Source of the DNA: an uncultured virus (IMG/VR IMGVR_UViG_3300021399_000124)
Lineage: Duplodnaviria; Heunggongvirae; Uroviricota; Caudoviricetes
DNA length: 64,000 nucleotides
Virus record (IMG/VR): IMGVR_UViG_3300021399_000124
Reading direction: 5' to 3' (one strand)
Position numbers and translations under genes: made by a program. Shown in pieces: positions 13,474 to 62,041 of this stretch. Under the pieces are notes generated by a model. It was given only the letters and a program-made list of their open reading frames with translations, did no database searches and was not told the DNA's origin. The stretch's first letter is position 1. Each line of letters opens with the position of its first letter.

Positions 13474-13854
13474 ATGATGAACACAAACACGGAATGGAAA
13501 GTAGCTTACAAGTTAATGAGACAGCTGAAAGACGGCACGGTGCATCCGCTCTTTATTAATAAGAAGGAAGAGACTCGGTTCGGGGTTGTGCTTCCTGCCG
13601 AATGCTATCCAACCAAGGGATTTGCAGTCCGTCAGGGATGGCATTGCTGTTTTACACCGTATGCTCCTCACTTAAAGCATGATTTGAGCAACGGAGAACA
13701 TCGAGTTTGGGTTGAAGTTTTAGTACGGAACTATGATACATATAATAGACCGGAATCACAGGGCGGTGCTTGGATTCTGGCACAGGAGATGATTGCGGAG
13801 CGAATTATTTCTGATGAGGAAATTCAGATGATACTTGCCGAGGCTATTGCATAA
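13474..13854 (+). CDS. Hypothetical phage protein
   Basis: RBS; motifs GFAVRQGWHC and RPESQGGAW. Confidence 0.75.
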   Translation: MMNTNTEWKVAYKLMRQLKDGTVHPLFINKKEETRFGVVLPAECYPTKGFAVRQGWHCCFTPYAPHLKHDLSNGEHRVWVEVLVRNYDTYNRPESQGGAWILAQEMIAERIISDEEIQMILAEAIA

Positions 13855-22349: not shown

Positions 22350-23564
22350 ATGATCAATAGAGACAAATGCGAAAATCTTATCGTTGATACAATAGAAGCT
22401 AACGCTGGGAAGCGGGCGTTCAGACGTATAATAACCGACACCTTGATGCAGGATCATGGTGTAATGAAGGGAAAGACTCTTCAGTTGATTGGGAATAAAG
22501 AGCATTTAAAAGCAGCCTCAGTCGAGGAATTGTTGTGGCTGTGTGATGCTATTTCTCTTGCCCTAGACGGTTCTGTATCATTTAAAGAATTCTTTACTCC
22601 GAATGAAGTAGGAATGTATCGGAATTCTAAGACAAAGCGTGAGGATGAGTCTGCTTATCCAGTCGTATTTAAGAATGTATTACAAATCAATAATGACCAG
22701 TGGGTAACAACAATAAATATTGATGAATTATATGACTTATATAAAAAACAGCTCATCAATTACAATAAGAATACACAGAGACCTACTCGCAGAAGGGAAG
22801 TTAATGGTCTCGTAGAATATAAAATCAGCGTAAATAAACGTTCTATAAGAGAAATCACGCAGCTGATGAGAGACCATCTGTTCATTCCTAATGCACTGAC
22901 ATTTAATATTAACATTGATAATGTGGAGAATAGCTTCACGTATTCAAATGGAAGGTTGGAACTACTCTCTGGCGTGTTTGATATTATCGATGGATTTCAC
23001 AGATATAAATCGTTGATTGACTGCAAGATAGAAAACCCGGCATTTAACTATAATATGGTGTTGAATATCATGAACTTTACAGAAGAAAAAGCCGGAACAT
23101 ATATCGCCCAGGAAGACAAGAGAAACAAGATTTCAAAGTCCGTGGTCAAGACGATGGACGCCAATAATCCCGTCAACTTTGTCATCCAGAGACTTAATGA
23201 TGATGGCGGATCATATCTGCGGGGCGAGATTGGAAGAACAGGTAATTATTCTGTTAATTCCGCATGGCTATTTGAAGCGATTTCAAAGTGTTATAAGGTA
23301 GATGATAACAGAGATGGCATCGCTCTGGTGCGATATCTGCGAGAGGCTTTTAATGCAGTCATTGAGGATGGAACTTTTGAGAAGACATTCCTTGGCGTGG
23401 CAGTTGTTGTGATTGCCTCCAGCATGTATCGTGAAACTGAGGATATTAATAAGATAAAGACGATTGTTGGGGCAGCCAAATATTTACCTGAAGACATAAA
23501 AAAAGAAACAACAGTCACAAAGAAGCTGATATCGGCAGTAAACAATCTTGAGAGGTGGGGATAA
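22350..23564 (+). CDS. DGQHR/DndB-like (ParB-superfamily) protein, SPbeta YopQ-like
   Basis: YNKNTQR, FIPNALTFN and IIDGFHR motifs; GAGGAGG RBS. Confidence 0.75.
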   Translation: MINRDKCENLIVDTIEANAGKRAFRRIITDTLMQDHGVMKGKTLQLIGNKEHLKAASVEELLWLCDAISLALDGSVSFKEFFTPNEVGMYRNSKTKREDESAYPVVFKNVLQINNDQWVTTINIDELYDLYKKQLINYNKNTQRPTRRREVNGLVEYKISVNKRSIREITQLMRDHLFIPNALTFNINIDNVENSFTYSNGRLELLSGVFDIIDGFHRYKSLIDCKIENPAFNYNMVLNIMNFTEEKAGTYIAQEDKRNKISKSVVKTMDANNPVNFVIQRLNDDGGSYLRGEIGRTGNYSVNSAWLFEAISKCYKVDDNRDGIALVRYLREAFNAVIEDGTFEKTFLGVAVVVIASSMYRETEDINKIKTIVGAAKYLPEDIKKETTVTKKLISAVNNLERWG

Positions 23565-24490
23565 TGTATAACGAAGAAATTAAAAATGAATATTTAGGAC
23601 AGATGCAACTTCAAAATGCAAAGAAAATAGCGTTTAGTATTTTTAATAATAATCTTGGTTATGAAGAATATTTTGGAAAGGATTTTTGTAACTTCACAAA
23701 CCAGGAGATCCTTGAATATTTCACGGCATTGGATTCCGTGGCTTTTGAATCATTAAATACAAAATGTTCTCTGCTCAGAACGTATACTCAGTGGTGTATC
23801 GAGCATAATCTTTCGGCAGATAATATTAATCATTATGACTCTATTACAAGAGAGAATCTGCGAAGTTGTTTAGACAAGACATTATATCAATCCAAGTTTG
23901 TTTCACTTGATGAACTAAAAGAGATATGCAGTCAGTTTATCAATGTCAGCGACCGAGCAGTTTGTTATTGTATTTTCTTTGGTGTTTATGGTAAGAGTGG
24001 CGAAGAGTTAAGAGAATTGACAGCTAGTTGCATTAATACTAATACCGGTCATATTAAACTTCACAATGGGAGAGAACTTGATGTACCTGTTTGGGTGGCT
24101 AAAGAATTATATGACAGCTGCGAGACTTACGAATATACTGTTATTAGAGAAAATGGTGATTTGTTTGATGTTAGACTAAGAGACACAGATCCGACAGTAT
24201 TTAAAGCAAGAGATAATTCCAGTAGTGATTCACTTCATGCATTCTCAAAACGGATTTCAAGGCGTTTAGGTATGCTTGGGAAAGAGTCCGAAAGCGTAAC
24301 CATGACGACAAAGCGTCTCAAGAATTCTGGTATGATTTATAAAATAAAGAAGCTTATGGAAGAAAATGGACTGACTGTCGAGGAAACATACGAAAGGCAA
24401 GAGACAAAAGATATTTTTGCCGAGTACAAATTAAAATATCCAGTAAGTCTTGGATTATTTTTAGAAAGATACGAATCTTTCCTTCGGTAA
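23564..24490 (+). CDS. Degenerate integrase-fold protein, SPbeta YopR/MrpR-like repressor
   Basis: MYNEEIKNEYL start, GKDFCNF, SAM-like N-domain; catalytic R and HxxR absent; coupled to the YopQ-like gene. Confidence 0.7.
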   Translation: MYNEEIKNEYLGQMQLQNAKKIAFSIFNNNLGYEEYFGKDFCNFTNQEILEYFTALDSVAFESLNTKCSLLRTYTQWCIEHNLSADNINHYDSITRENLRSCLDKTLYQSKFVSLDELKEICSQFINVSDRAVCYCIFFGVYGKSGEELRELTASCINTNTGHIKLHNGRELDVPVWVAKELYDSCETYEYTVIRENGDLFDVRLRDTDPTVFKARDNSSSDSLHAFSKRISRRLGMLGKESESVTMTTKRLKNSGMIYKIKKLMEENGLTVEETYERQETKDIFAEYKLKYPVSLGLFLERYESFLR

Positions 24491-26008: not shown

Positions 26009-26683
26009 ATGGAGGTTAAAATAATGGCAACAATTGATTATGGCGCTGTTTTGTTTAAGAACGGAAAGCAGGTTAATCATGAAATGTTTATGGATATGTT
26101 CGACGCTGTTGGTTGGGTCGATGCCCCACGCATAAAGTATCCAGACTGCGACTATCTTGATAAGTGGGGATATTCTGACTGTAGCGATTGCCAAAAAGTG
26201 CATATGAAACAATATCATTCTGAAGAATATGGAGACTTTGAAGAAATCGATACAGATTGCAAAGGCAATGATTTATGGGATTTTAGACCAAAGATTGATA
26301 GAAACTATTATGTTTATGTCGGTGACGAACATTTAACTGTTGCAGCATATAAATATTCGTTTGTTGTATTATGTGATAAGAAGGTGGTCGCCAAGTATTG
26401 GGGAGTAAAAAAATGGGAGGAACAGGCCGGTTTGGAAAGAAGAAGTCGTCACTTCAAGATTGATGATGTAGATTTCTCCGTTAAAGCAATCCTTCCAGAT
26501 CAGGTTCATAAACTATCATTTAGATACAATGGAGATTATTATGACATTGTATATGGTTATTGTATAGATCCGGATATGAAGATTTGGGACGATGCAAAAA
26601 ATCGCTATCTTGGCAAGAGGGGCGCTCGAAAGGTTGATAACCTTTATCGAAGAATTCGGAAATCTAGAAAGTTCTATCATTAA
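26009..26683 (+). CDS. Hypothetical phage protein
   Basis: 224 aa ORF; GGAGG RBS before internal ATG. Confidence 0.7.
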   Translation: MEVKIMATIDYGAVLFKNGKQVNHEMFMDMFDAVGWVDAPRIKYPDCDYLDKWGYSDCSDCQKVHMKQYHSEEYGDFEEIDTDCKGNDLWDFRPKIDRNYYVYVGDEHLTVAAYKYSFVVLCDKKVVAKYWGVKKWEEQAGLERRSRHFKIDDVDFSVKAILPDQVHKLSFRYNGDYYDIVYGYCIDPDMKIWDDAKNRYLGKRGARKVDNLYRRIRKSRKFYH

Positions 26684-26703
26684 TATCTGATGGATGTATA
26701 AAT

Positions 26704-26973
26704 ATGACGGATATATTAATATATTTATTATTTCCGATTGGTTATGTTTTCGGAGTTTATATGTGCGCTATTGCTGAATACCACAGAAGGAGCAAGATTA
26801 CAATCGAACCGCTAAGTAAAAAAGAAATCCGAGAGCAGCTTGAGGACATCCAAAACATTGTAGAAAACGATGTGCATCCTGCCGTATCTCCGGATAATTG
26901 GTACATCTATTCGAATTTGCATGACGAAATCGAACAACTAGAAATACTCTTGAAGCAAAATAATGTGATTTAA
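26704..26973 (+). CDS. Small membrane-anchored hypothetical protein
   Basis: N-terminal TM; its stop lies inside the first cassette repeat. Confidence 0.65.
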   Translation: MTDILIYLLFPIGYVFGVYMCAIAEYHRRSKITIEPLSKKEIREQLEDIQNIVENDVHPAVSPDNWYIYSNLHDEIEQLEILLKQNNVI

Positions 26974-26995
26974 AGGAAACAAGGAGGACGCTAAC

Positions 26996-27124
26996 ATGGA
27001 TATTTGCATTGCGATATCAATTTTAATACCTCTCGCAATGGTGATTGGATGGCTGATTCACATCGCTGTTGTTTGGAAATGGGATTTTAATGCATGGTAT
27101 CATGACTCCGATGACGACATCTGA
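26996..27124 (+). CDS. Cassette ORF: 42-aa membrane peptide
   Basis: AAGGAGG RBS; MDICIAISILIPLAMVIGWLIHIAVVW...; stop abuts the repeat. Confidence 0.6.
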   Translation: MDICIAISILIPLAMVIGWLIHIAVVWKWDFNAWYHDSDDDI

Positions 27125-27148
27125 TTTAAAGAGAACGAGGTAACTGCC

Positions 27149-27367
27149 GTGGATGATAATGAACTTTTTGATCTTGTGCGAAAGAACTATACAGAAGCAA
27201 ACAAGGATTATATCAAAGAGCAAGTGAAAACTGTGCTTAAAGAACCTTCGATGACAAAGCAGGAAGTATTAGACGGTTTGATTGATTGGATAGTTGAAGC
27301 CGGATGCACAGGCATGAATGAGCATTACAGAAAGTTTGTGTTTTCGGCAATTGCTTATCTAACTTAA
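27149..27367 (+). CDS. Cassette ORF: hypothetical protein
   Basis: GAGGT RBS, GTG start; stop inside the repeat. Confidence 0.65.
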   Translation: MDDNELFDLVRKNYTEANKDYIKEQVKTVLKEPSMTKQEVLDGLIDWIVEAGCTGMNEHYRKFVFSAIAYLT

Positions 27368-27377
27368 AGGAGACAGT

Positions 27378-27566
27378 ATGCGTGAAAATAATAAAATTGA
27401 TATGCAGAAGAACCTATATGATATAACTAATCCAAACGAACTAAAAGTATATATTATGTCTATGCTTGAAGAGGTGTCAAAACTCCATCCTAATTATCCA
27501 CTTTATGGCTATGATTATAATGATGGAAAATTGATTTCCGTGCGAAGAACCAATGGAAGGTTATGA
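27378..27566 (+). CDS. Cassette ORF: hypothetical protein
   Basis: RBS supplied by the repeat (AAAGGAG); stop abuts the next repeat. Confidence 0.6.
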   Translation: MRENNKIDMQKNLYDITNPNELKVYIMSMLEEVSKLHPNYPLYGYDYNDGKLISVRRTNGRL

Positions 27567-27580
27567 TTTAAAGGAAACAT

Positions 27581-27661
27581 ATGAAAGAAACACTAACAGA
27601 ATTTTTTATCAAAGTATTTTTAGTGCTATTGATAATAAGCCTTATATACTGGCTAACTTAA
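27581..27661 (+). CDS. Cassette ORF: 26-aa hydrophobic peptide
   Basis: MKETLTEFFIKVFLVLLIISLIYWLT*; fills the inter-repeat interval. Confidence 0.45.
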   Translation: MKETLTEFFIKVFLVLLIISLIYWLT

Positions 27662-27783
27662 AGGGAACATTAACTGAGGAAGTTACGGAAGAATAAGCAG
27701 AGGTGACAGGATGAAAATTATAATCGCAACTCCCAACGGCGATTACATCGTTGAAAACGGAGTAGTAGGCAAGTGGTGACGGG

Positions 27784-27957
27784 ATGAACAAAAGGCCGAG
27801 CAAAGACCATTATCCGAAAGTGGTTAATGGACATTGGTATGTATACGATCCTTGCAAGGGTGGATTCGTAAGCACTGGAATCAAGACTACACATCTTGCA
27901 TATATCCTTGGAATCGTATGCGGAATGGTTCTGCGTGGGTGGATTTCAAGGATGTAG
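27784..27957 (+). CDS. Cassette ORF: 57-aa peptide with C-terminal hydrophobic helix
   Basis: MNKRPSKDHYPKVVNGHWYVYDP...; TAG abuts the repeat. Confidence 0.5.
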   Translation: MNKRPSKDHYPKVVNGHWYVYDPCKGGFVSTGIKTTHLAYILGIVCGMVLRGWISRM

Positions 27958-27982
27958 CGTAAAGGGAACAAAAGGAGGAATT

Positions 27983-28477
27983 ATGAGTCAGATAATTATA
28001 GCACCAAACGAAGACAAGTCGATTTTTCCTGTTTCAGTTTTTCTCGCAGGTGGAATTACGAACTGCGAGAATTGGCAAGAAAAGGTGTTGCGTGAATTGG
28101 AATGCGAAAATATCACGATTTTTAATCCAAGGCGCACATCTTTTAATATAGCGGATAAAAATGCTTCTGTTCAGCAAATTACATGGGAATATAATTGTTT
28201 GGAAAAAATGGATGTATTCAGTATGTATTTTTGCAATGGCGAATCAGACCAACCAATCTGCATGTACGAGTTAGGACGTAATATATTAAGGATGCAAAAT
28301 AGATTCCCTAGTGATTGGGAAAAGCGCATAGTAGTAGGCATTGAATCTGGCTATAAGCGCAAGCAGGATGTCATTGTTCAGATGGATTTATGCGCACCAA
28401 ATTTGTTTATTGAGTCCGATACTACGCCAGAACTACATGCGCAGTACATAAAAAAATGCGTTCGTAAATTTCTATAA
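27983..28477 (+). CDS. Cassette ORF: nucleoside 2-deoxyribosyltransferase-like protein
   Basis: VFLAGGI, WQ, FNPRR, QITWEY, PICMYELG motifs; AAGGAGG RBS. Confidence 0.8.
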   Translation: MSQIIIAPNEDKSIFPVSVFLAGGITNCENWQEKVLRELECENITIFNPRRTSFNIADKNASVQQITWEYNCLEKMDVFSMYFCNGESDQPICMYELGRNILRMQNRFPSDWEKRIVVGIESGYKRKQDVIVQMDLCAPNLFIESDTTPELHAQYIKKCVRKFL

Positions 28478-28492
28478 CAACTTAAAGAGAAC

Positions 28493-28586
28493 GTGCTATC
28501 GTGGCTCAGTGGGACGACACAAAGTCGATGTTGACTGCGATGGTTGATGGACAATCTCGTGCGGTTCGATTCCGCACCGATAGCAC
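28493..28586 (+). ncRNA. tRNA-like RNA filling one whole cassette
   Basis: 9-bp terminal stem GTGCTATCG/CGATAGCAC; T-arm GTGCGG-TTCGATT-CCGCAC; D-arm-like TGGCTCAGTGG; no canonical anticodon arm. Confidence 0.55.
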
Positions 28587-28604
28587 TAACTTAAAGAGAA
28601 CAGA

Positions 28605-28724
28605 ATGCTTAGATTAATTAAAAAAATACAGGTCTGGTTTTGGAATTTAGGCAACTGCAATCCTCCATACGATTGCCCGTTTTGTATGGACTGTTACGAC
28701 AATCCGCAAGACATTAAAGACTAA
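28605..28724 (+). CDS. Cassette ORF: 39-aa Cys-rich peptide
   Basis: ...GNCNPPYDCPFCMDCYD...; stop abuts the repeat. Confidence 0.5.
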   Translation: MLRLIKKIQVWFWNLGNCNPPYDCPFCMDCYDNPQDIKD

Positions 28725-28794
28725 TTTAAAGAGAACAATTCTTTCGAAAAATTTAGTATAATAGGTATATCAAATTGAGAAGGGAGAATGAATT

Positions 28795-29049
28795 ATGGCT
28801 TGCTATTATAAAAGAAGAACAGGCGAATCGCCAGATAATGATATGTGTACACGCCAAATGGCATACGGTGGATGCGTTTCTTGTCTTTATGGTGGTTCGG
28901 TAGAAGTGATAACGCACAGCGATCCTTTGGATGGTTTAGAACAGATGTTTGATCAAGATTCGCCATATGTGTTCTATGATGACAAACACGGTTTCTGTAT
29001 CAATACAGAAGATGCCATCAAACTTTTTAGAGAGTGCTTCTCTAACTAA
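28795..29049 (+). CDS. Hypothetical Cys-containing protein
   Basis: AAGGGAG RBS. Confidence 0.6.
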   Translation: MACYYKRRTGESPDNDMCTRQMAYGGCVSCLYGGSVEVITHSDPLDGLEQMFDQDSPYVFYDDKHGFCINTEDAIKLFRECFSN

Positions 29050-29406
29050 ACAAAAAACAAGATGCGTACAAGAGATTTTCTCCGAAGGAGTTTTGGATGG
29101 ACTACGTAATTATATTTATCATTGGCGTATACATTGGTACAGAAATACAGGCATGGTGGTGTCGAAAAGGTGCTAAAATGTTTGTTGAATGGCAGTTGTT
29201 CAGAAAGGAGTAATCATGAAATTTCTTATTATCACAAAATACGGTTAGTGTCAAATCGAAACAAGTGATTTTGATGATGCTGTAGGACAGACTTATGACA
29301 GCAAATTGTTGGGAAATAGTGCCAGATTAAAACGTGATTTAAATTTGCTACCTTATGACCAAAGAAGGAACAATAAATTATTTATTATAGAAAGGAATTA
29401 AATAAT

Positions 29407-30003
29407 ATGGATGTAGTAAACAATTTTAACAAGATGTTTGGAAAAGTGCAGAATGGAATGTGTAGACTTTCAATGAATGGGGAGATTGCCGTTAAGACAT
29501 CTAGCGGATATAAGACATATAATCCAAAGACAAATCGGCTGACAAATTGCTCCAATTTTGTTTTTGATATTGGAGAGGAATTCTTCTTTGTTGTTCCTAC
29601 AAATCATGTTAAAAATGGAGATATTATTCTGATTGGCGGTAAGCCAAAGTGTGTCATTAATAAAGACACAGAGACAATCACCGTAATTAATTACGAAGAT
29701 GCAACAGTAGAAACCATTCTTCCGGAACGCCATGTATTTCTCGGATCTACATATTTTTATGGTAAGATTGTGAGCATGTTTGGACGCAATATTTTTGGAG
29801 ACAAGAAGGGTACAAATAAAATGCTGACCTACATGATGATGTCTGAAATGATGAAGGGTGGTAATAATGGCGGCAGCAGCATGAATATGGTTCTTCCAAT
29901 GATGATGATGTCCGGCGGTAATATGAATGGTCTTTTCGATGGAATGTTTGAGTTTGACGAAGACGCTGAAGATATTGAAGAAACTGAGAACACGGAGGAA
30001 TAA
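29407..30003 (+). CDS. Hypothetical protein with Met/Gly-rich C-terminus
   Basis: RBS; first gene of the vWA/PurA-like triad. Confidence 0.75.
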   Translation: MDVVNNFNKMFGKVQNGMCRLSMNGEIAVKTSSGYKTYNPKTNRLTNCSNFVFDIGEEFFFVVPTNHVKNGDIILIGGKPKCVINKDTETITVINYEDATVETILPERHVFLGSTYFYGKIVSMFGRNIFGDKKGTNKMLTYMMMSEMMKGGNNGGSSMNMVLPMMMMSGGNMNGLFDGMFEFDEDAEDIEETENTEE

Positions 30004-33282: not shown

Positions 33283-33354
33283 TGCCCGTTAGCCAAACGG
33301 AAAGGCACGTGGTTTTGATCCACGGATATACTGGTTCGATTCCAGTACGGGCAG
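33283..33354 (+). tRNA. tRNA-Gln (TTG), CCA not encoded
   Basis: Acceptor TGCCCGT/ACGGGCA; anticodon arm CGTGG-TTTTGAT-CCACG; T-arm ACTGG-TTCGATT-CCAGT. Confidence 0.9.
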
Positions 33355-33388
33355 CTTACCTATTAATAATGTTTTTAAGAAGGAGACA

Positions 33389-54895: not shown

Positions 54896-54968
54896 TGTGA
54901 TATTAGCCTCGATGTGGTATAATACATGCACCACACCGAGGCTTTATACTATAGGAAGGAGTGTCAAG

Positions 54969-56192
54969 ATGAAGTGTTGCAATTCGGCAACGGTGTATAA
55001 AGCTTCATATAAAAGCGGAGAAGAGTGGGCTATTCGGCTCAATATCTCTGAGTGGACGGAAGAAGGAGCGGTGTTTTCGCAAAAGAAGATCCGCACACAT
55101 CTCCCAGCCACGCCCAGAAACAAAACAAAAGCAAATATTATCGCCGAGCAGGAGATAGAGAAATATAATGATTCCCAGCGGTGCAAGAGTATGCTGAAAT
55201 TCTTTGATGAGTGGTTAGCGTGGAAGAAGGACTCAATTGAACTTAGCACTTATCAATCCTATGAATACCGCATCGCCTATATGAGGGATTACTTCAAACA
55301 TGTTAATGTTGAAGAGGTCACACCGGCGATGGTCAAAGACTTTTACAAGTCAGTTTTCAACAAAAAGAAGAAGAACGGCAACAGTTATATCAGTAACCGA
55401 GTGATAAAAGATGTCTTGAAGTTATTCCGAAATATCATGGATGATGCAGTGTATATGAAGTTAATACCGGAGAATCCGTGCGGAAAGCTGAAGATCCCGC
55501 AAAGACCAACGGCAGCAGGAGACAAGGCATTTATCGGTGCAGATGAGGTTGAGATATTCTTTGAGGAGATTAAAGGACATAAGCTTGAGGATATGTTCGT
55601 GCTTGCCATTTACTATGGACTTCGCCGTGAGGAATTATGTGCTTTAAAATGGGATGCAGTCCGAGGGGATGAAATCTTTATCGAGAGAACCATAGTTCAT
55701 GTTAAGACCGATATAGCCAAGGAGAGGACGAAGACGCAGTCTAGTTATAGGAGCTATCCAATAACCGAGTCTGTGAGGGAGATGCTTGACAGGATTAAAG
55801 AAAAGCAGGAGAGAGATAAAAAGTTCTTTGGGGACGAATATAAGGACTCTGGATATATCTTTACCTGGAATGATGGACATCCCTACAGCCCAGACTATCT
55901 GACGAAGAACTTTAAGAAGGTAGTAAAGAAGTCGGACAGGCTCGATGACTCACTCACGCTACACAGCCTCCGAGCGTCATGCGTTAGCATTCTAGTCCAC
56001 GGCGGTGCTGACATTAAAGACATCCAGAAATGGGTTGGACACGCCGACATTAAGACCACTTTGCAGATTTATGCGAGGACGAATAAGAAGCAACAGTGGG
56101 GAGTAGCTAATAAGATGGATGGCTTCATTTTTCAAGGGCAAGATGGCAAGAGTAAAAGTAAGAGTTTAGAAAAAATAAGAGTTGTGAGCTAA
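54969..56192 (+). CDS. int: Phage integrase (tyrosine recombinase)
   Basis: GLRREE, KT, HSLR, GH, IY; AGGAAGGAG RBS before ATG 54969. Confidence 0.9.
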   Translation: MKCCNSATVYKASYKSGEEWAIRLNISEWTEEGAVFSQKKIRTHLPATPRNKTKANIIAEQEIEKYNDSQRCKSMLKFFDEWLAWKKDSIELSTYQSYEYRIAYMRDYFKHVNVEEVTPAMVKDFYKSVFNKKKKNGNSYISNRVIKDVLKLFRNIMDDAVYMKLIPENPCGKLKIPQRPTAAGDKAFIGADEVEIFFEEIKGHKLEDMFVLAIYYGLRREELCALKWDAVRGDEIFIERTIVHVKTDIAKERTKTQSSYRSYPITESVREMLDRIKEKQERDKKFFGDEYKDSGYIFTWNDGHPYSPDYLTKNFKKVVKKSDRLDDSLTLHSLRASCVSILVHGGADIKDIQKWVGHADIKTTLQIYARTNKKQQWGVANKMDGFIFQGQDGKSKSKSLEKIRVVS

Positions 56193-56778: not shown

Positions 56779-56893
56779 CCTCTTCCATCAGTCCCGCAAT
56801 AAATATCATAATGATAATCACAGGGAATAAAATAATTGTTTTAAACATAAGATTCACCTTAGTATATAGTAATTGATAAAATTTAATAACTCG

Positions 56894-57895
56894 TTATACA
56901 ATATACTGCTGATATGAATTTTTTATTTTAGAATTATCCACATAAATATATTCCATCGTAGTGTTGATATTGCTATGTCCTAATAATTTTTGAATCTCTT
57001 GTATATCCATGCCACGCCGAGCCATCCCAGATGCAAATGTTCTTCTAAAGCGATGCGGATGCACATTATCTACTCCGGAATCTTTTTCAATAGTCTTTAA
57101 AATACTTCTTATCCCGCCAGGACTTAAAGGTGTATGATTCTTATTATAAAAAAGAGCAACACCTTGTTCTGGTCGAGATAATAAATATTTTTGCAAATGT
57201 GTCTTAGCAACATCGTTTATAAATGTTATTCGTTCTTTTCCACCTTTTCCGTATCTTACATGAACATTCATATCATCAATATCAGATATTCTCATAGAGG
57301 ATAATTCAGAAACTCTAACACCAGATGTAAGTAGAAATTCTACAATAGCACGTTTTTTGTAACTATTACAAGCTGAACGCAACCTATCAATTTCAACCTC
57401 GGAAAATGGTTTTCGTATTTCGTCTTTATATTTGAGTGGTTTAATATTCATACATGGATTTTTCGAAATGATTTCTTCTGTAGTCATCCACTGGAAGAAA
57501 GCGGATAGATTTGCTCTGATATTTTCACATGATCTATCTGATACTCCACGTTCTTTTTCACATGCAAGGTAATATCGTATATCATAAACGCCCATTTCTT
57601 TAAATGATTTACCAATAAAATTAGATAATTTCTCCGCTGTCCGCCTATATTGGTATATAGTATTTTTTGATTTTCCATCTACCATTAAACATGCGCAATA
57701 TCTTTTCATAATACGTTCGTTTTCATTATCGTACACTACGATATCTTTACAATATTCTGTTACTTCATAGTCATTTAATACTCGAATTATTTGAGAAACA
57801 ACAAGCTGCACGGTGCTTGTATCGACCTTTTCAATTAATGAGTTTTCTAGCGACCGAATAAGTTTTTCTTTACAATCTGTAGACATAAAAAACAT
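56894..57895 (-). CDS. Xer-type tyrosine recombinase with N-terminal SAM-like domain
   Basis: SGVRVSE, GKGGKER, HPHRFRRT, LGH, EY; all catalytic residues present; likely start ATG 57886. Confidence 0.9.
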   Translation of the reverse strand: MFFMSTDCKEKLIRSLENSLIEKVDTSTVQLVVSQIIRVLNDYEVTEYCKDIVVYDNENERIMKRYCACLMVDGKSKNTIYQYRRTAEKLSNFIGKSFKEMGVYDIRYYLACEKERGVSDRSCENIRANLSAFFQWMTTEEIISKNPCMNIKPLKYKDEIRKPFSEVEIDRLRSACNSYKKRAIVEFLLTSGVRVSELSSMRISDIDDMNVHVRYGKGGKERITFINDVAKTHLQKYLLSRPEQGVALFYNKNHTPLSPGGIRSILKTIEKDSGVDNVHPHRFRRTFASGMARRGMDIQEIQKLLGHSNINTTMEYIYVDNSKIKNSYQQYIV

Positions 57896-57980
57896 CCTCC
57901 GTTTTTAACAATAAAGAGCCGCACTCTAATTGATTGGTAGTCGAGCGAGTACGGCTCGATTTTTTTATTTGTCTACAGAT

Positions 57981-58009
57981 ATTATACATTATATAATACT
58001 ATGTGTCAA
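57981..58009 (-). promoter_or_regulatory. sigmaA promoter of the Xer-like gene
   Basis: Minus strand TTGACA-17-TATAAT; hairpin leader GAGCCG..CGGCTC at ~57917-57958. Confidence 0.75.
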
Positions 58010-58022
58010 TATTTAATATCTC

Positions 58023-58040
58023 TTTAAAGTTCCCTTTAAA
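58023..58040 (-). repeat. Candidate recombination site TTTAAA-GGGAAC-TTTAAA
   Basis: Palindromic arms with 6-bp spacer; directly after the tail-gene stop and upstream of the recombinase promoter; first 12 bp match the array repeat. Confidence 0.7.
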
Positions 58041-59777
58041 TTATATGCTATTTATTTTACTTATGATTTTCCATGCAAGCCGTTCAAACTGTGCTTTGCT
58101 CGGATGCAATTTATCAGAAGTCCATGCGTCAATGTTTATTTTATTAACACCACCGCAATGGAACATATCAAGGACAGGGAATCCGTATATTTCAGCCGTA
58201 GCAATCATGGCGTTTGCAAAATCTTCAAGCGTATGTCCTGTGGTCGGATTTTTCTTGAATCCCCTCGCATCCTCTTCCCATGTGTCTGTATTGGTAGTAG
58301 CCCGCTGCAAAGGTGTGATGAACAGTAATTTGCACCCAGGAAGGTTGGTTGATACTTCTTCGCAAACGTGCCGTAAGGCTCCGTAATACGTGTTTCTGTC
58401 CGTTCCTAAAAGTGTCCCGAGAGAAACGCCACCGTACCAGTCATTTGTTCCTGCCCATACAGTCATGACATCTGCCTCAGTTATGCTGTCTACAAATCCT
58501 GCAATAGCTGTCATGTTCCCACCGCTTTGTGCAGCTTTAAAGTATGACATACCTAACATTTGTGAAGTCATTTCTTGCCAGTATCCCATTTGGGTAAGGC
58601 TGTCACCTATCGTAACAAGGTGCTTGTCGTTCCACTCACCTTTAAGTGCCTTTCTTGGCTCGTTGTATGGAAAGTATTCTGACATACAAGGATGTTCGTT
58701 AGGGACGATCATCACCGTATCTATTTCTGTCGCAAGGAAGGAACACCTGATATAAGTCGCTTCTGAATCTGTTGTCGGGTCTATCGTTATGCTCCTTGCT
58801 TCTACACCTCTCACGAACGTTGTTCCGTCCGCTTTCCATAATGTCCAAGTCGGAACAGTGCTGATGTCCCTATTCATTGCAAAAATTGTATAATCCCCGA
58901 TTGGAATCAGCCCAGTAGAATGCTGATAGTTTGTAAGAACAAAAGCACCGTTTTTGTTGTACATACCTGTTGTTAGTGCCTTTTCTTTATCAAAAAGATT
59001 CAGCGTTGTATGATCTACAAGAAAATCATTTCCAACCGCATCCTCTGCCAATCTTTCAATGGCTGATTCATAGGATTCAGATGTTTCATAAAATGCGCTC
59101 CAACTTCCCACGGTAATCGTTCCGTTGCTTTCTAATGGGCTTGTGTTTGTTACCTTGAGAGATGCTACTAAGTATGTCGATGTAGCATCCTCGTTTATGG
59201 TCACATCAACAGTTACCTCACCGTTTTCCCACGTAGAGCTGTTAATGGTATACCCTGTGCCATTGATTACTATATTAGCACTTACTTTATCTGAAAGATT
59301 TTCACTGACCGCAAACGGACATACCACGCTAATCGTTTTGCCCTTTATTGATGTAAAATCTGCGCCCTGACATCTAACCCCTATATAGGATGTATTGCCA
59401 GTTGATCCAGACGGGATTGTCATTACTCCCGAACTTGTACTTGCTCCGTTTTTGTTATCTGCTACTCTTGCGAAAAGGTTTGAGATTCCGACAGGATCGG
59501 TTTTTCTAATTGATGCGATCTCGTTTAAATCTTCCTTTAAAGAAGATACCTGTCCCCTTACAGCATCACCTGCTGACGGATATGTCACACCATCAGCACC
59601 AACACGAATGTCAATCAGCTCCGCATCACCAGTTGTTGAACCTTCAGAGAGACTTGCAATGTTATCAATTCGTTTTCTCTCTACATCAATCTCTTTTTCT
59701 ATTTTATTTGATCGCTGTCCCCATGCAGCTACGATTTTTCTCAATTGAGACAAAGTAATATAATTTAAAACAGACAT
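58041..59777 (-). CDS. Tail/fibre-associated protein with C-terminal SGNH/GDSL hydrolase
   Basis: N-terminal DAELIDIRVGADGVTYPSAGDAVRGQ; C-terminal GDSLT, AGTND, DKLHP. Confidence 0.8.
   Translation of the reverse strand: MSVLNYITLSQLRKIVAAWGQRSNKIEKEIDVERKRIDNIASLSEGSTTGDAELIDIRVGADGVTYPSAGDAVRGQVSSLKEDLNEIASIRKTDPVGISNLFARVADNKNGASTSSGVMTIPSGSTGNTSYIGVRCQGADFTSIKGKTISVVCPFAVSENLSDKVSANIVINGTGYTINSSTWENGEVTVDVTINEDATSTYLVASLKVTNTSPLESNGTITVGSWSAFYETSESYESAIERLAEDAVGNDFLVDHTTLNLFDKEKALTTGMYNKNGAFVLTNYQHSTGLIPIGDYTIFAMNRDISTVPTWTLWKADGTTFVRGVEARSITIDPTTDSEATYIRCSFLATEIDTVMIVPNEHPCMSEYFPYNEPRKALKGEWNDKHLVTIGDSLTQMGYWQEMTSQMLGMSYFKAAQSGGNMTAIAGFVDSITEADVMTVWAGTNDWYGGVSLGTLLGTDRNTYYGALRHVCEEVSTNLPGCKLLFITPLQRATTNTDTWEEDARGFKKNPTTGHTLEDFANAMIATAEIYGFPVLDMFHCGGVNKINIDAWTSDKLHPSKAQFERLAWKIISKINSI
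59524..59541 (-). repeat. Candidate in-frame recombination site TTTAAA-GGAAGA-TTTAAA (encodes LKEDL)
   Basis: Same arm-6bp-arm architecture and orientation as the 58023 site; lies at the end of the conserved N-terminal segment. Confidence 0.6.
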
Positions 59778-59854
59778 TTTATCACCTTCCTTGTCTGTAA
59801 AAATTTATATATAAAGTAGATAACGCATATTATCTATAATAATATTTTAAGGTT

Positions 59855-60121: not shown

Positions 60122-62041
60122 TTATGAATTAAGTTGATTGAGTGCATCCGCCAGTGAGATGACGGTACAGTTGGTGTTAGGTGTTATTGTTGCTCCTCTG
60201 GCGATTGCAACAGTGGAGTAATAAAGCGTATTGCCGATTGTGAAGAATGTATTAGCAGGAATATTATCATTCGCAACCATATCATCTTCAGTAGGTGATG
60301 TCAGTTTTTGTATGTAAAGCTGTACATCTGATTTATAGGTTACAGTAGTGTCTCCAGTATCTGCCCAGATGTTGTTTGTACCAAGCAGAGTGGCGACTTC
60401 AGTAGGAGTTAGGTAGTAGGTCTGTGGTTCGGCTAGTTCGTAGACAAGCTGAACGCCAGACATGGCGATTTTGAAATCGGCGGCAGTTAAATTCTGTTTC
60501 GCTGTGTCTTTTATTCGTATCTGTCCTGATAATGAGATATACACATAATTATCTCCTGCCGATGATAGTACGGTTTTATATACAGAACAGACGACGTTGG
60601 TATCGCCAATTTCAGATGGCATCTTGACTATATTATTTATATCGCTACTCAAAAACGTCTGCCAGTTTCCAACGTTTTTTGACCAATTCAATGCCCCCAG
60701 GTCAACCATCGCCCTATCCACCACCAACTCTCCACTCGTCACATCAAGTGTACCTCCATAGACAGTACCTGCTTCGGATGGGAATGAGATAGGGTAGGTT
60801 ATGCCTTGGTATGATTCGTAGGCGGTGGCGGTGGAGCCTAATTCAAGCTGTGGATAAACGTCTTCGTCAATAGTTACGTTTTGCTGAACAAACAAAAATG
60901 CACCATAATATTCAGCTTTGTCTGTATCAACAGTAAACGTTGAAGCAAAGTTACCTTGTCCATATAAATATATGGGTATCGAACATTTGCTTGTACGTCC
61001 ACTAACCACATAGGTAAGTCCATTTTTCAAATAACTCGGTAACGGAATTTTAGCAGATTCAAATCCACCTTCTATCGCATAATACGCATTTTTAGTAGCG
61101 GTGCCTTGTATATGGTATCCTCCGCCATCTATTGGCGTAAATACTATACCGTTAGTCGTTTGTTCTGTAGTCCTATGCGGAAGTAAATTTTTCCCAGCTC
61201 TTACAACCTCCGCTCCTGTCCATCCAGAGATAGGGCAGATGTTGGAGTAGGGAGCGTAGTCAGTGGCAGTGGAGCCTTCTTCAAGTTGAAAGTACGCAGA
61301 AATATTAACTGTAACACCAGCTTGACCAGTATTAAGATAAATATTAATTGTCGTTTCATTTTCAATTGTAAATGTTTTGTGATGTGTATGTTCTGCGGGC
61401 AAAATATCGCACAATCCGACTCTATTAACTGGGTCATAAATCTTAAAGACAAGCCCCGAAAAGTCATCGATAACAGATGCGGTATACGTTCCTGCTGTTA
61501 AGGTCATGTTCCTAACAAAGTGGAAATTTGTGCCTCTTTCAGTGGTTCCAGTTGCAGTTATTTTACCGTTTTCGTCAATCGTGTAAGTAATGCCGTCAGT
61601 CGTTCCCGATTTTGTTAAATACGGAAATGGTATTTTATTCTTCCCGCCACCTGCAGGCCACGGATGGTCGTATCCATGCAGGTCCTGTACAGGCTCGATG
61701 TTCACCTTAACACTTTTAGCAGGCAGTAAGTCACTTCCGTCATCAAATGATGCTATTGCTCCAGAGGCAGTGGAAGTTGGGAGGACTTTGTCGAATGTGT
61801 CTTTTATCTGTCCTCTAACTGCATCACCGACAGAAGGATATGTATAATTAACACCTTTCCTTGCATCAATCATTTCTTCTTCTATCGAGGCTAGTTGTTC
61901 GGCGGATAGCGCCTCATCATCAGTATTCACCATCTGTGTTAATAAAGCAGATACATTTTCATCTGTTTCGGGTTCTGGTACAATACCTTTTACTTTTCCC
62001 CATAATTTAGGCAATCCAATTTCATAATCTAAAAAGTTCAT
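60122..62041 (-). CDS. Tail fibre/receptor-binding-like protein
   Basis: YPSVGDAVRGQ, repeated QLE.GSTAT.Y, CPISGW, YELAEP, LLGTNNIWAD motifs. Confidence 0.7.
   Translation of the reverse strand: MNFLDYEIGLPKLWGKVKGIVPEPETDENVSALLTQMVNTDDEALSAEQLASIEEEMIDARKGVNYTYPSVGDAVRGQIKDTFDKVLPTSTASGAIASFDDGSDLLPAKSVKVNIEPVQDLHGYDHPWPAGGGKNKIPFPYLTKSGTTDGITYTIDENGKITATGTTERGTNFHFVRNMTLTAGTYTASVIDDFSGLVFKIYDPVNRVGLCDILPAEHTHHKTFTIENETTINIYLNTGQAGVTVNISAYFQLEEGSTATDYAPYSNICPISGWTGAEVVRAGKNLLPHRTTEQTTNGIVFTPIDGGGYHIQGTATKNAYYAIEGGFESAKIPLPSYLKNGLTYVVSGRTSKCSIPIYLYGQGNFASTFTVDTDKAEYYGAFLFVQQNVTIDEDVYPQLELGSTATAYESYQGITYPISFPSEAGTVYGGTLDVTSGELVVDRAMVDLGALNWSKNVGNWQTFLSSDINNIVKMPSEIGDTNVVCSVYKTVLSSAGDNYVYISLSGQIRIKDTAKQNLTAADFKIAMSGVQLVYELAEPQTYYLTPTEVATLLGTNNIWADTGDTTVTYKSDVQLYIQKLTSPTEDDMVANDNIPANTFFTIGNTLYYSTVAIARGATITPNTNCTVISLADALNQLNS

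Follow-up and report, generated by a model that had tools for sequence, protein, structure and literature searches.

The question raised by the locus described here is whether a phage can have a dedicated slot for exchanging the tip of one of its virion proteins; tail fiber mosaicism is usually ascribed to chance recombination. The locus lies at positions 56,894 to 59,777 of a 64,000-nucleotide (nt) stretch, here called the window, of uncultured virus record IMGVR_UViG_3300021399_000124, in which a gene for an Xer-like tyrosine recombinase stands next to a gene for a probable tail protein. An earlier note, made from the letters of the window, had proposed that the tail protein's C-terminal part is a swappable cassette bracketed by matching sites. 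Here, we report a comparison with related loci, which revealed conserved sites, constraint at the DNA level, breakpoints, diverse tips, and distinct spacer classes (features in Table 1). The best model is an exchange slot served by spacer-matched double crossover between phage genomes, which on this comparative evidence we regard as quite probable.

Table 1. Coordinates of the features discussed (positions in the window)
Feature	Position	Strand	Remarks
MrpR-like (SPbeta-type) repressor	23555-24490	+	Tyrosine-recombinase-derived fold, PF22822
Array of 9 small units	26704..28736	+	Each ends in left arm plus outer-class spacer; orientation opposite to tail sites
Array sites	26965, 27121, 27359, 27563, 27653, 27954, 28477, 28586, 28721	+	Left arm plus spacer
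Sole two-armed array site	27653..27678	+	Matrix score 24.6; spacer equal to that of the outer tail site, which lies 30 kb away; orientation inverted
Nucleoside 2-deoxyribosyltransferase-like unit	27983..28477	+	PF15891
Block of anchor, cassette, site, and recombinase	56857..59788		2.93 kb; circularly permuted relative to relatives
Xer-like tyrosine recombinase	56894..57895	-	333 amino acids (aa), without arm-binding domain; catalytic R-K-H-R-H-Y intact
Sigma-70-type promoter of recombinase	57981..58009	-	TTGACA-17-TATAAT, 12/12 consensus; consensus match only
Outer (proximal) recombination-type site	58019..58044	-	Arms plus spacer GGGAAC (58034-58029); tail-gene stop codon within left arm
Putative exchangeable cassette	58041..59523	-	Residues ~85-578: two beta-rich domains plus SGNH esterase (~58089-58619)
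Inner (distal) in-frame site	59520..59545	-	Spacer GGAAGA (59535-59530); LKEDL inside predicted helix 69-90
Fixed N-terminal anchor of probable tail protein	59542..59777	-	79 aa, helical

Sites and proteins of the locus

The pattern TTTAAA-N6-TTTAAA occurs exactly twice in the window (58023-58040 and 59524-59541), with a chance expectation of 0.04 and two copies reached in 0 of 100 shuffles; both 18-mers reported in the earlier note are where it placed them. The two have the same (direct) orientation. Translation of the 578-aa open reading frame (ORF; 58041-59777) agreed with the placement proposed there, the inner site encoding L80-K-E-D-L84 on the minus strand and the outer site following the stop codon directly, and the two spacers do differ at three of six positions. 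The full conserved site, at about 26 bp (CTRAYTTAAA-N6-TTTAARTCAG), is longer than the 18-mer. When the whole window was scanned with the site matrix, neither the stretch from 30.2 kb to 58 kb nor the surroundings of the tail gene gave a further site. At 13667-13692 (+), a 126-aa early gene contains a two-armed site-like sequence that reads LKHDL in frame (score, 19.1), perhaps by chance.

The SGNH hydrolase that had been placed in the C-terminal part was recovered as a PF13472 match (46 bits; cut-off, 32.9) over residues 387-563, with its blocks intact (GDSL at 391, QSGG at 417, GTND at 443, and DKLHP at 555) and fold matches in agreement; a PHROG tail-fiber match covers the SGNH part only. 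GC content at the third codon position is 0.39 in the cassette, 0.23 in the anchor, and 0.22 in the recombinase. In the predicted structure (mean predicted local distance difference test score, 84.7), the join falls in the helix of residues 69-90, before two beta domains and the SGNH domain, and this predicted position in a linker helix ahead of the first beta domain was counted in favor of an exchange slot. Receptor-binding esterases of the SGNH type have a precedent in PMC13123978, and together with the neighboring genes and the PHROG and fold matches this precedent suggests a role of the tip in host range. The neighboring 639-aa gene (60122-62041, -) has the same GDAVRGQ anchor motif, with no intact site after it.

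The recombinase has PF00589 and SAM-like PF13495 domains (Pfam) and all catalytic residues (R194, K217, H281, R284, H307, and Y316), which are invariant in an alignment of 40 sequences (numbering there one lower). Its best PDB matches are XerA-like (4a8e and 5hxy), with IntI4 ranking below XerA and XerD. It scored under every NCBIfam cut-off (XerA_Arch, 216 versus 220; XerC, 179 versus 335; XerD, 165 versus 330), and the match to IntI family TIGR02249 (77.7 bits versus a cut-off of 265) covers residues 266-322 only. Genome bins with the closest recombinases are labeled Lachnospiraceae or Clostridiales. Its promoter, a perfect consensus match, lies 14 nt from the end of the outer site, as the note had said. 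A separate arm-binding integrase (54897-56192; PF14659) is available for prophage integration, a point in favor of the exchange slot.

Conservation of the sites in related loci

Loci were gathered with the recombinase, and after duplicate removal 110 remained at ≥48% identity, the window included; the site matrix was built from 56 seed sites (31 outer and 25 inner) out of these same loci. Of the 81 loci at ≥48% identity with enough DNA, 45 carry an outer site 66 to 266 nt upstream of the recombinase, versus 0/81 inside the recombinase gene and 0/70 downstream as controls; with more distant recombinases, it was found in 0/16 and 0/31. Where at least 3.5 kb of DNA was at hand, 29 of 36 loci had an inner in-frame site within the upstream ORF, and the in-frame hits (41/41) share one reading frame.

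A codon test is not circular, because its motifs were chosen at the protein level. Upstream of the recombinase, 28 LKxD[LIF] motifs were defined by protein sequence; 23 of them had all three codons that preserve the site, where local codon usage predicts 1.7, compared with 1/7 such motifs elsewhere in the same loci and 0/3 in other loci. These comparisons make both sites a conserved trait of one recombinase family in gut and rumen phages.

Exchange of tips at the sites

Breakpoints were counted in the recombinase loci as internal ends of alignments of ≥100 nt and ≥85% identity; 14 of 28 fell within 12 nt of a site (1.0 expected), although the loci are related and these are not 14 independent events. 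A wider count with anchor-only loci mixed in gave 20/389. Loci L083 and L084 are 98% identical up to the inner site, carry unrelated DNA between the sites, and are 93% identical from the outer site onward, while L091, L094, L096, and L121 have one anchor with four different tips. A tip 55 to 56% identical to that of the window was found at 96 to 98% identity on three anchors only 13 to 22% alike, joined at LKED. Relatives aligned as the earlier note asked thus lose identity at the LKEDL codons and regain it at the second site, and its view of the C-terminal part as an exchangeable cassette is upheld by these identity breaks and by tips and anchors found in different pairings.

The tips are diverse. 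Thirty-seven tips formed 37 clusters and their anchors 29, and a Pfam scan of 32 of the 37 site-bearing proteins found SGNH-type esterases (7), metallophosphoesterases (5), GDPD (2), single tips with CotH, pectinesterase, pectate-lyase-like, and metallo-beta-lactamase folds, and no match for 10. Inner sites and LKED tip swaps are also seen in L003-L007, L011, L013, L016, and L018, with no recombinase in the fetched DNA; a recombinase may act in trans there.

The closest relatives were contig pieces in 4 of 20 listed runs (X1, X2, X4, and X6). Their contigs match the recombinase side and then end at 58030 (X2 and X4) or 58043 (X6); two X2 contigs end at 59523. The contigs of X1, the likely source run, show a break with 30 nt of overlap (58003-58032) that falls inside the outer spacer, and the same overlap is seen in X4; the other X1 branch has a depth of 40.4 versus 34.2, within the spread of neighboring contigs (34 to 41) and a hint only. 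Neither an empty slot nor a strand-changing joint was among the contig joints listed for the four runs. In X6, the start of the 639-aa gene is tied to the outer site via 2407 other letters. An exact search of viral contigs for the two flanks of the window returned 0 and 0, and there was no DNA relative among annotated phages (best protein matches there, ≤40%).

Spacers and proposed mechanism

The spacer mismatch, which the earlier note had flagged as a possible limit on simple excision, holds throughout the family. No locus had the same spacer at its inner and outer sites (0/25 pairs when inner sites were defined by a GA ending and 0/24 without that definition); one to three of the six bases were shared. 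Inner-class spacers usually end in GA, which is fixed by L-K-x-D-L, and outer-class spacers usually end in AC or AA. The nearest extra site upstream of the outer one had an identical spacer in 5 of 17 loci (0.90 expected; maximum of 4 in 10,000 permutations). The DNA between the extra and outer sites is 85 to 920 nt long and usually holds one small gene (eight hand-picked examples), often with a good left arm only at one junction and a good right arm only at the other. One-armed junctions with matching spacers are the trace expected from the single crossover of a circle. At the outer site of L085, L095, L098, L205, and L220, the inserts have small antisense ORFs that are alike and resemble ribbon-helix-helix regulators; these passengers are related although their phages are not.

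From these patterns we infer an enzyme that needs spacer homology, a mismatch that shields the tip from excision, and tips that move by two crossovers between genomes. In this model, the locus would be a slot dedicated to exchanging the tip of one virion protein, of the tail or baseplate. The recombinase next to it would bind the ~26-bp palindromic sites and join a pair only if their 6-bp spacers are the same or almost so. Two site classes with different spacers, the inner in frame and the outer noncoding, would bound the slot and thereby prevent simple excision of the tip. Exchange would start when two phages share a cell, through coinfection or superinfection of a lysogen, and their genomes recombine at the inner sites; resolution of the cointegrate would follow at the outer sites or through homology beyond them. 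The outcome would be an anchor with a new tip in frame, probably another enzyme or binder for surface polysaccharides. The outer site would also take up small gene circles via single crossover, and the distant array is most likely built of such small units. The acting enzyme, the cointegrate route, the virion location, the effect on host range, and the origin of the array are the inferred parts of the model.

The distant array

The array that the earlier note had mentioned is real, with nine left-arm-plus-spacer units counted at 26965-28736. The motif TTAAAG-R-R-AAC occurs eight times in the window (0.32 expected). All nine spacers are outer class (GAGAAC, four; GGAAAC, two; GGGAAC, two; and GGAGAC, one), two of them being the outer spacer of the window, and the left arms score 8.0 to 13.7 on a matrix built from tail-locus sites only. 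Right arms are lacking in eight of nine units (scores of -10 to -25 versus 4.7 at 27653). Eight units carry an ORF, with the stop codon in or within 2 nt of the arm in each, and in three units an ATG lies within 3 nt after the spacer. None of the nine near-consensus plus-strand promoters of the window lies inside the array.

Apart from the deoxyribosyltransferase-like gene, the array ORFs had no Pfam match and no homolog in the fetched loci. One unit (28494-28585, +) is noncoding and resembles a tRNA, with a cloverleaf, an acceptor-like stem, a T-loop-like hairpin, and the site directly after it; ARAGORN and Rfam made no call on it, and its folding z-score was only -1.4. There was no Rfam match in 26500-29500, where the array sites are, by inspection, one-armed 16-mers.

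One-armed sites like those of the array also delimit small-gene inserts at the tail loci of relatives, and this match makes the same enzyme family the likeliest author. That the array was made by the enzyme family of the tail sites is, in our judgment, rather probable. The claim in the earlier note that one enzyme handles both is therefore likely only; the shared left arm and outer-class spacers speak for it, and the missing right arms in eight of nine units and the absence of the array from relatives speak against it. For the X1 branch, we considered that the outer site and one of the GAGAAC array sites had recombined by inversion; this fits the break position but should also break the contig on the cassette side, which is unbroken, and it was rejected.

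Gene order and phage context

The gene order is different in X2 and X6, where the start of the tail gene has the recombinase upstream of it, with a joint of 59788 to 56857 at a shared ribosome-binding motif, and L109 likewise has the recombinase before the tail gene. With the order reversed in relatives, the block in the window is a circular permutation. It looks as if a circle from two outer sites had reentered by microhomology, or a tandem duplication had decayed. In L101, an inner-type site lies on both sides of one recombinase; in a whole-record scan, one more match of the outer type lay downstream.

The window belongs to a large temperate gut phage and holds replication genes, an MrpR-like gene, the arm-binding integrase, and tail-type genes at 58 to 64 kb (-). 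The run that contains the stretch is a gut metagenome, and the cluster record of the tail protein includes a 110-kb contig. The MrpR-like gene marks an SPbeta-like large temperate phage; its product gave no alignment to the profile of the recombinase. The segment 56288-56330, just after the integrase, resembles the 3' half of a tRNA gene (no ARAGORN call) and is a probable attachment core; many contigs have loose ends there. A tRNA-Gln(TTG) gene lies at 33283-33355 (+).

Alternative explanations

Several points weigh against the exchange slot. The site counts are partly circular, the matrix having been trained on the same loci, and the loci are akin, so that counts are not independent. There was no scoring outer site in 36 of 81 loci and no inner site in 7 of 36, and a few of 37 in-frame hits are short or doubtful (L114 and L246). 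The virion location of the tail protein is probable, judged from its neighbors and from PHROG, family, and fold matches. The four runs were compared as contigs, not raw reads, and an X1 contig is continuous across the inner site, with no swap or empty slot there. Eighty loci retrieved with the anchor had only 14 inner-type motifs, and only four had a recombinase within the fetched DNA; the remaining anchor homologs, without a site, diverge near the same boundary anyway, so that this boundary is also an ordinary mosaic point. An LKED swap (L006 versus L003, L004, L007, and L011) occurred with no recombinase in the fetched DNA, and for some such swaps an enzyme in trans or another route is needed. 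No such array was found in 45 motif loci (maximum of three half-sites), 80 loci of related large phages, or 36 whole records (maximum of three half-sites), and 0 of 32 homologs of the deoxyribosyltransferase-like gene end in a site (33 loci, one partial excluded).

For the array only, its repeats might be operators or stop/ribosome-binding junctions, for example MrpR-like repressor sites, and not recombination scars. The MrpR-like gene (N-terminal domain, PF22822) lies 2.2 kb upstream, and SPbeta MrpR binds a repeated 15-bp element according to PMC10516654; the degenerate right arms in eight of nine units, the ATG codons close behind three spacers, and the lack of the array and of a site after its one recognizable gene in relatives fit as well. 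We nevertheless think this explanation unlikely, though a serious contender, given left arms that score well on a matrix from tail-locus sites alone, nine outer-class spacers of which two are identical to the outer spacer of the window, one-armed sites that border small-gene inserts at the tail loci of relatives, and no near-consensus plus-strand promoter among the units.

At the tail locus, a mismatch-tolerant recombinase could work in an integron-like or Tn916-like manner, excising the tip as a circle (inner by outer site) and letting incoming circles enter the empty slot. The direct orientation of the two sites, the X1 and X4 contig branches inside the outer spacer and not at its edge, the inner spacers of L083 and L084 one base apart, and the permuted block, which hints at circular intermediates, would all suit such a route. 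It is improbable in view of spacers that are class specific and never identical within a locus, inserts that duplicate the spacer as homology-dependent exchange does, the lack of an empty slot among the joints listed, the unbroken X1 contig at the inner site, and a score below the integron-integrase cut-off.

Tail-gene mosaicism of the ordinary kind, in which a conserved coiled-coil peptide is the place of homologous or microhomology recombination and the outer palindrome serves only as an operator for recombinase autoregulation, would account for an outer site 14 nt from a perfect promoter, for site-less anchor homologs that diverge near the same boundary, and for swaps without an adjacent recombinase, but is very improbable when synonymous codons are held to the palindrome (23/28), breakpoints fall at the noncoding outer site too, inserts are bordered by identical-spacer duplications, and the catalytic residues are invariant.

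If the exchange slot is real, a defined enzyme and a 26-bp site would let many Firmicutes phages of gut and rumen exchange tips in a programmed, predictable way, drawing on a common pool of interchangeable enzyme tips. With enzyme and site defined, the change of host recognition in such phages is directly testable by plasmid assays. As a possible tool, the locus also offers a small recombinase whose short sites are naturally orthogonal, one of them being translatable. Tentatively, and with our judgment leaning somewhat the other way, the dedicated recombinase and its two orthogonal site classes might form a phage-borne gene-trading platform. The translated class would swap receptor-binding tips in frame between unrelated phages, the noncoding class would gather small accessory genes and a tRNA-like RNA (here, the nine-unit array), and the recombinase and slot would be mobile as a circle, giving a natural heterospecific cassette exchange with an integron-like reservoir.

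Comparison with known systems

A description of the system was not found in a literature search that left subscription journals mostly uncovered and supplements unread. The Rin shufflon of Bifidobacterium and Eggerthella prophages (PMC6109161 and PMC8778435) has an armless Xer-like tyrosine recombinase, separate from the integrase, beside a receptor-binding gene whose interior holds one of two directly oriented sites, the other following closely on its 3' end; the N terminus of the encoded protein is constant and the C terminus variable. This layout is present in the window. Rin keeps several spare C termini in cis and swaps them by inversion, with repeats that are identical, asymmetric, and 8 to 11 bp long, whereas the window has no spare tips or inverted in-gene site and its sites are ~26-bp palindromes with differing spacers (0/24 identical). 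Sites on the plus strand downstream of the recombinase were found in only 1 of 50 related loci. The tips here are enzyme modules of 400 to 800 aa that vary between genomes, and the likeness to Rin described here is one of layout. With no spare tips and no inverted in-gene sites, this is not a Rin-type inversion shufflon.

In the pdif/dif modules of Acinetobacter, as set out in PMC13141974, recombination between sites with 6-bp spacers needs identical spacers or a match at five of six positions, and on plasmids a single dif module is replaced via a cointegrate resolved at a second site pair, with experimental support. The sites here are likewise of Xer type with 6-bp spacers, and comparison of loci points to a similar need for spacer identity or near identity. 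That source describes host XerC/XerD, asymmetric C and D arms, alternating orientation, and whole plasmid genes; the window has a phage-encoded recombinase below the XerC/XerD cut-offs, symmetric arms, direct orientation, and one translated site, which gives fusion proteins.

Integrons keep an IntI recombinase by a reception site, attI, and collect attC cassettes. They share with the window a recombinase beside a reception site and arrays of small promoterless genes with the stop codon within the site (an integron subgroup is described in PMC8138268). The nine units are such a promoterless cassette array, but lie 29 kb from the recombinase on the other strand; the recombinase falls far short of the IntI cut-off, and inspection showed no long hairpins of the attC type. 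In contrast to integrons, the duplicated spacers suggest that exchange is double stranded and dependent on homology.

In engineered cassette exchange with heterospecific lox or FRT sites, nonmatching spacers block excision and permit replacement by double crossover. The literature found on heterospecific cassette exchange consisted of engineering papers only, and the system in the window would be a natural counterpart inside a reading frame. In its mode of working, it would be closer to pdif module replacement or engineered heterospecific cassette exchange than to Rin, with some integron-like traits.

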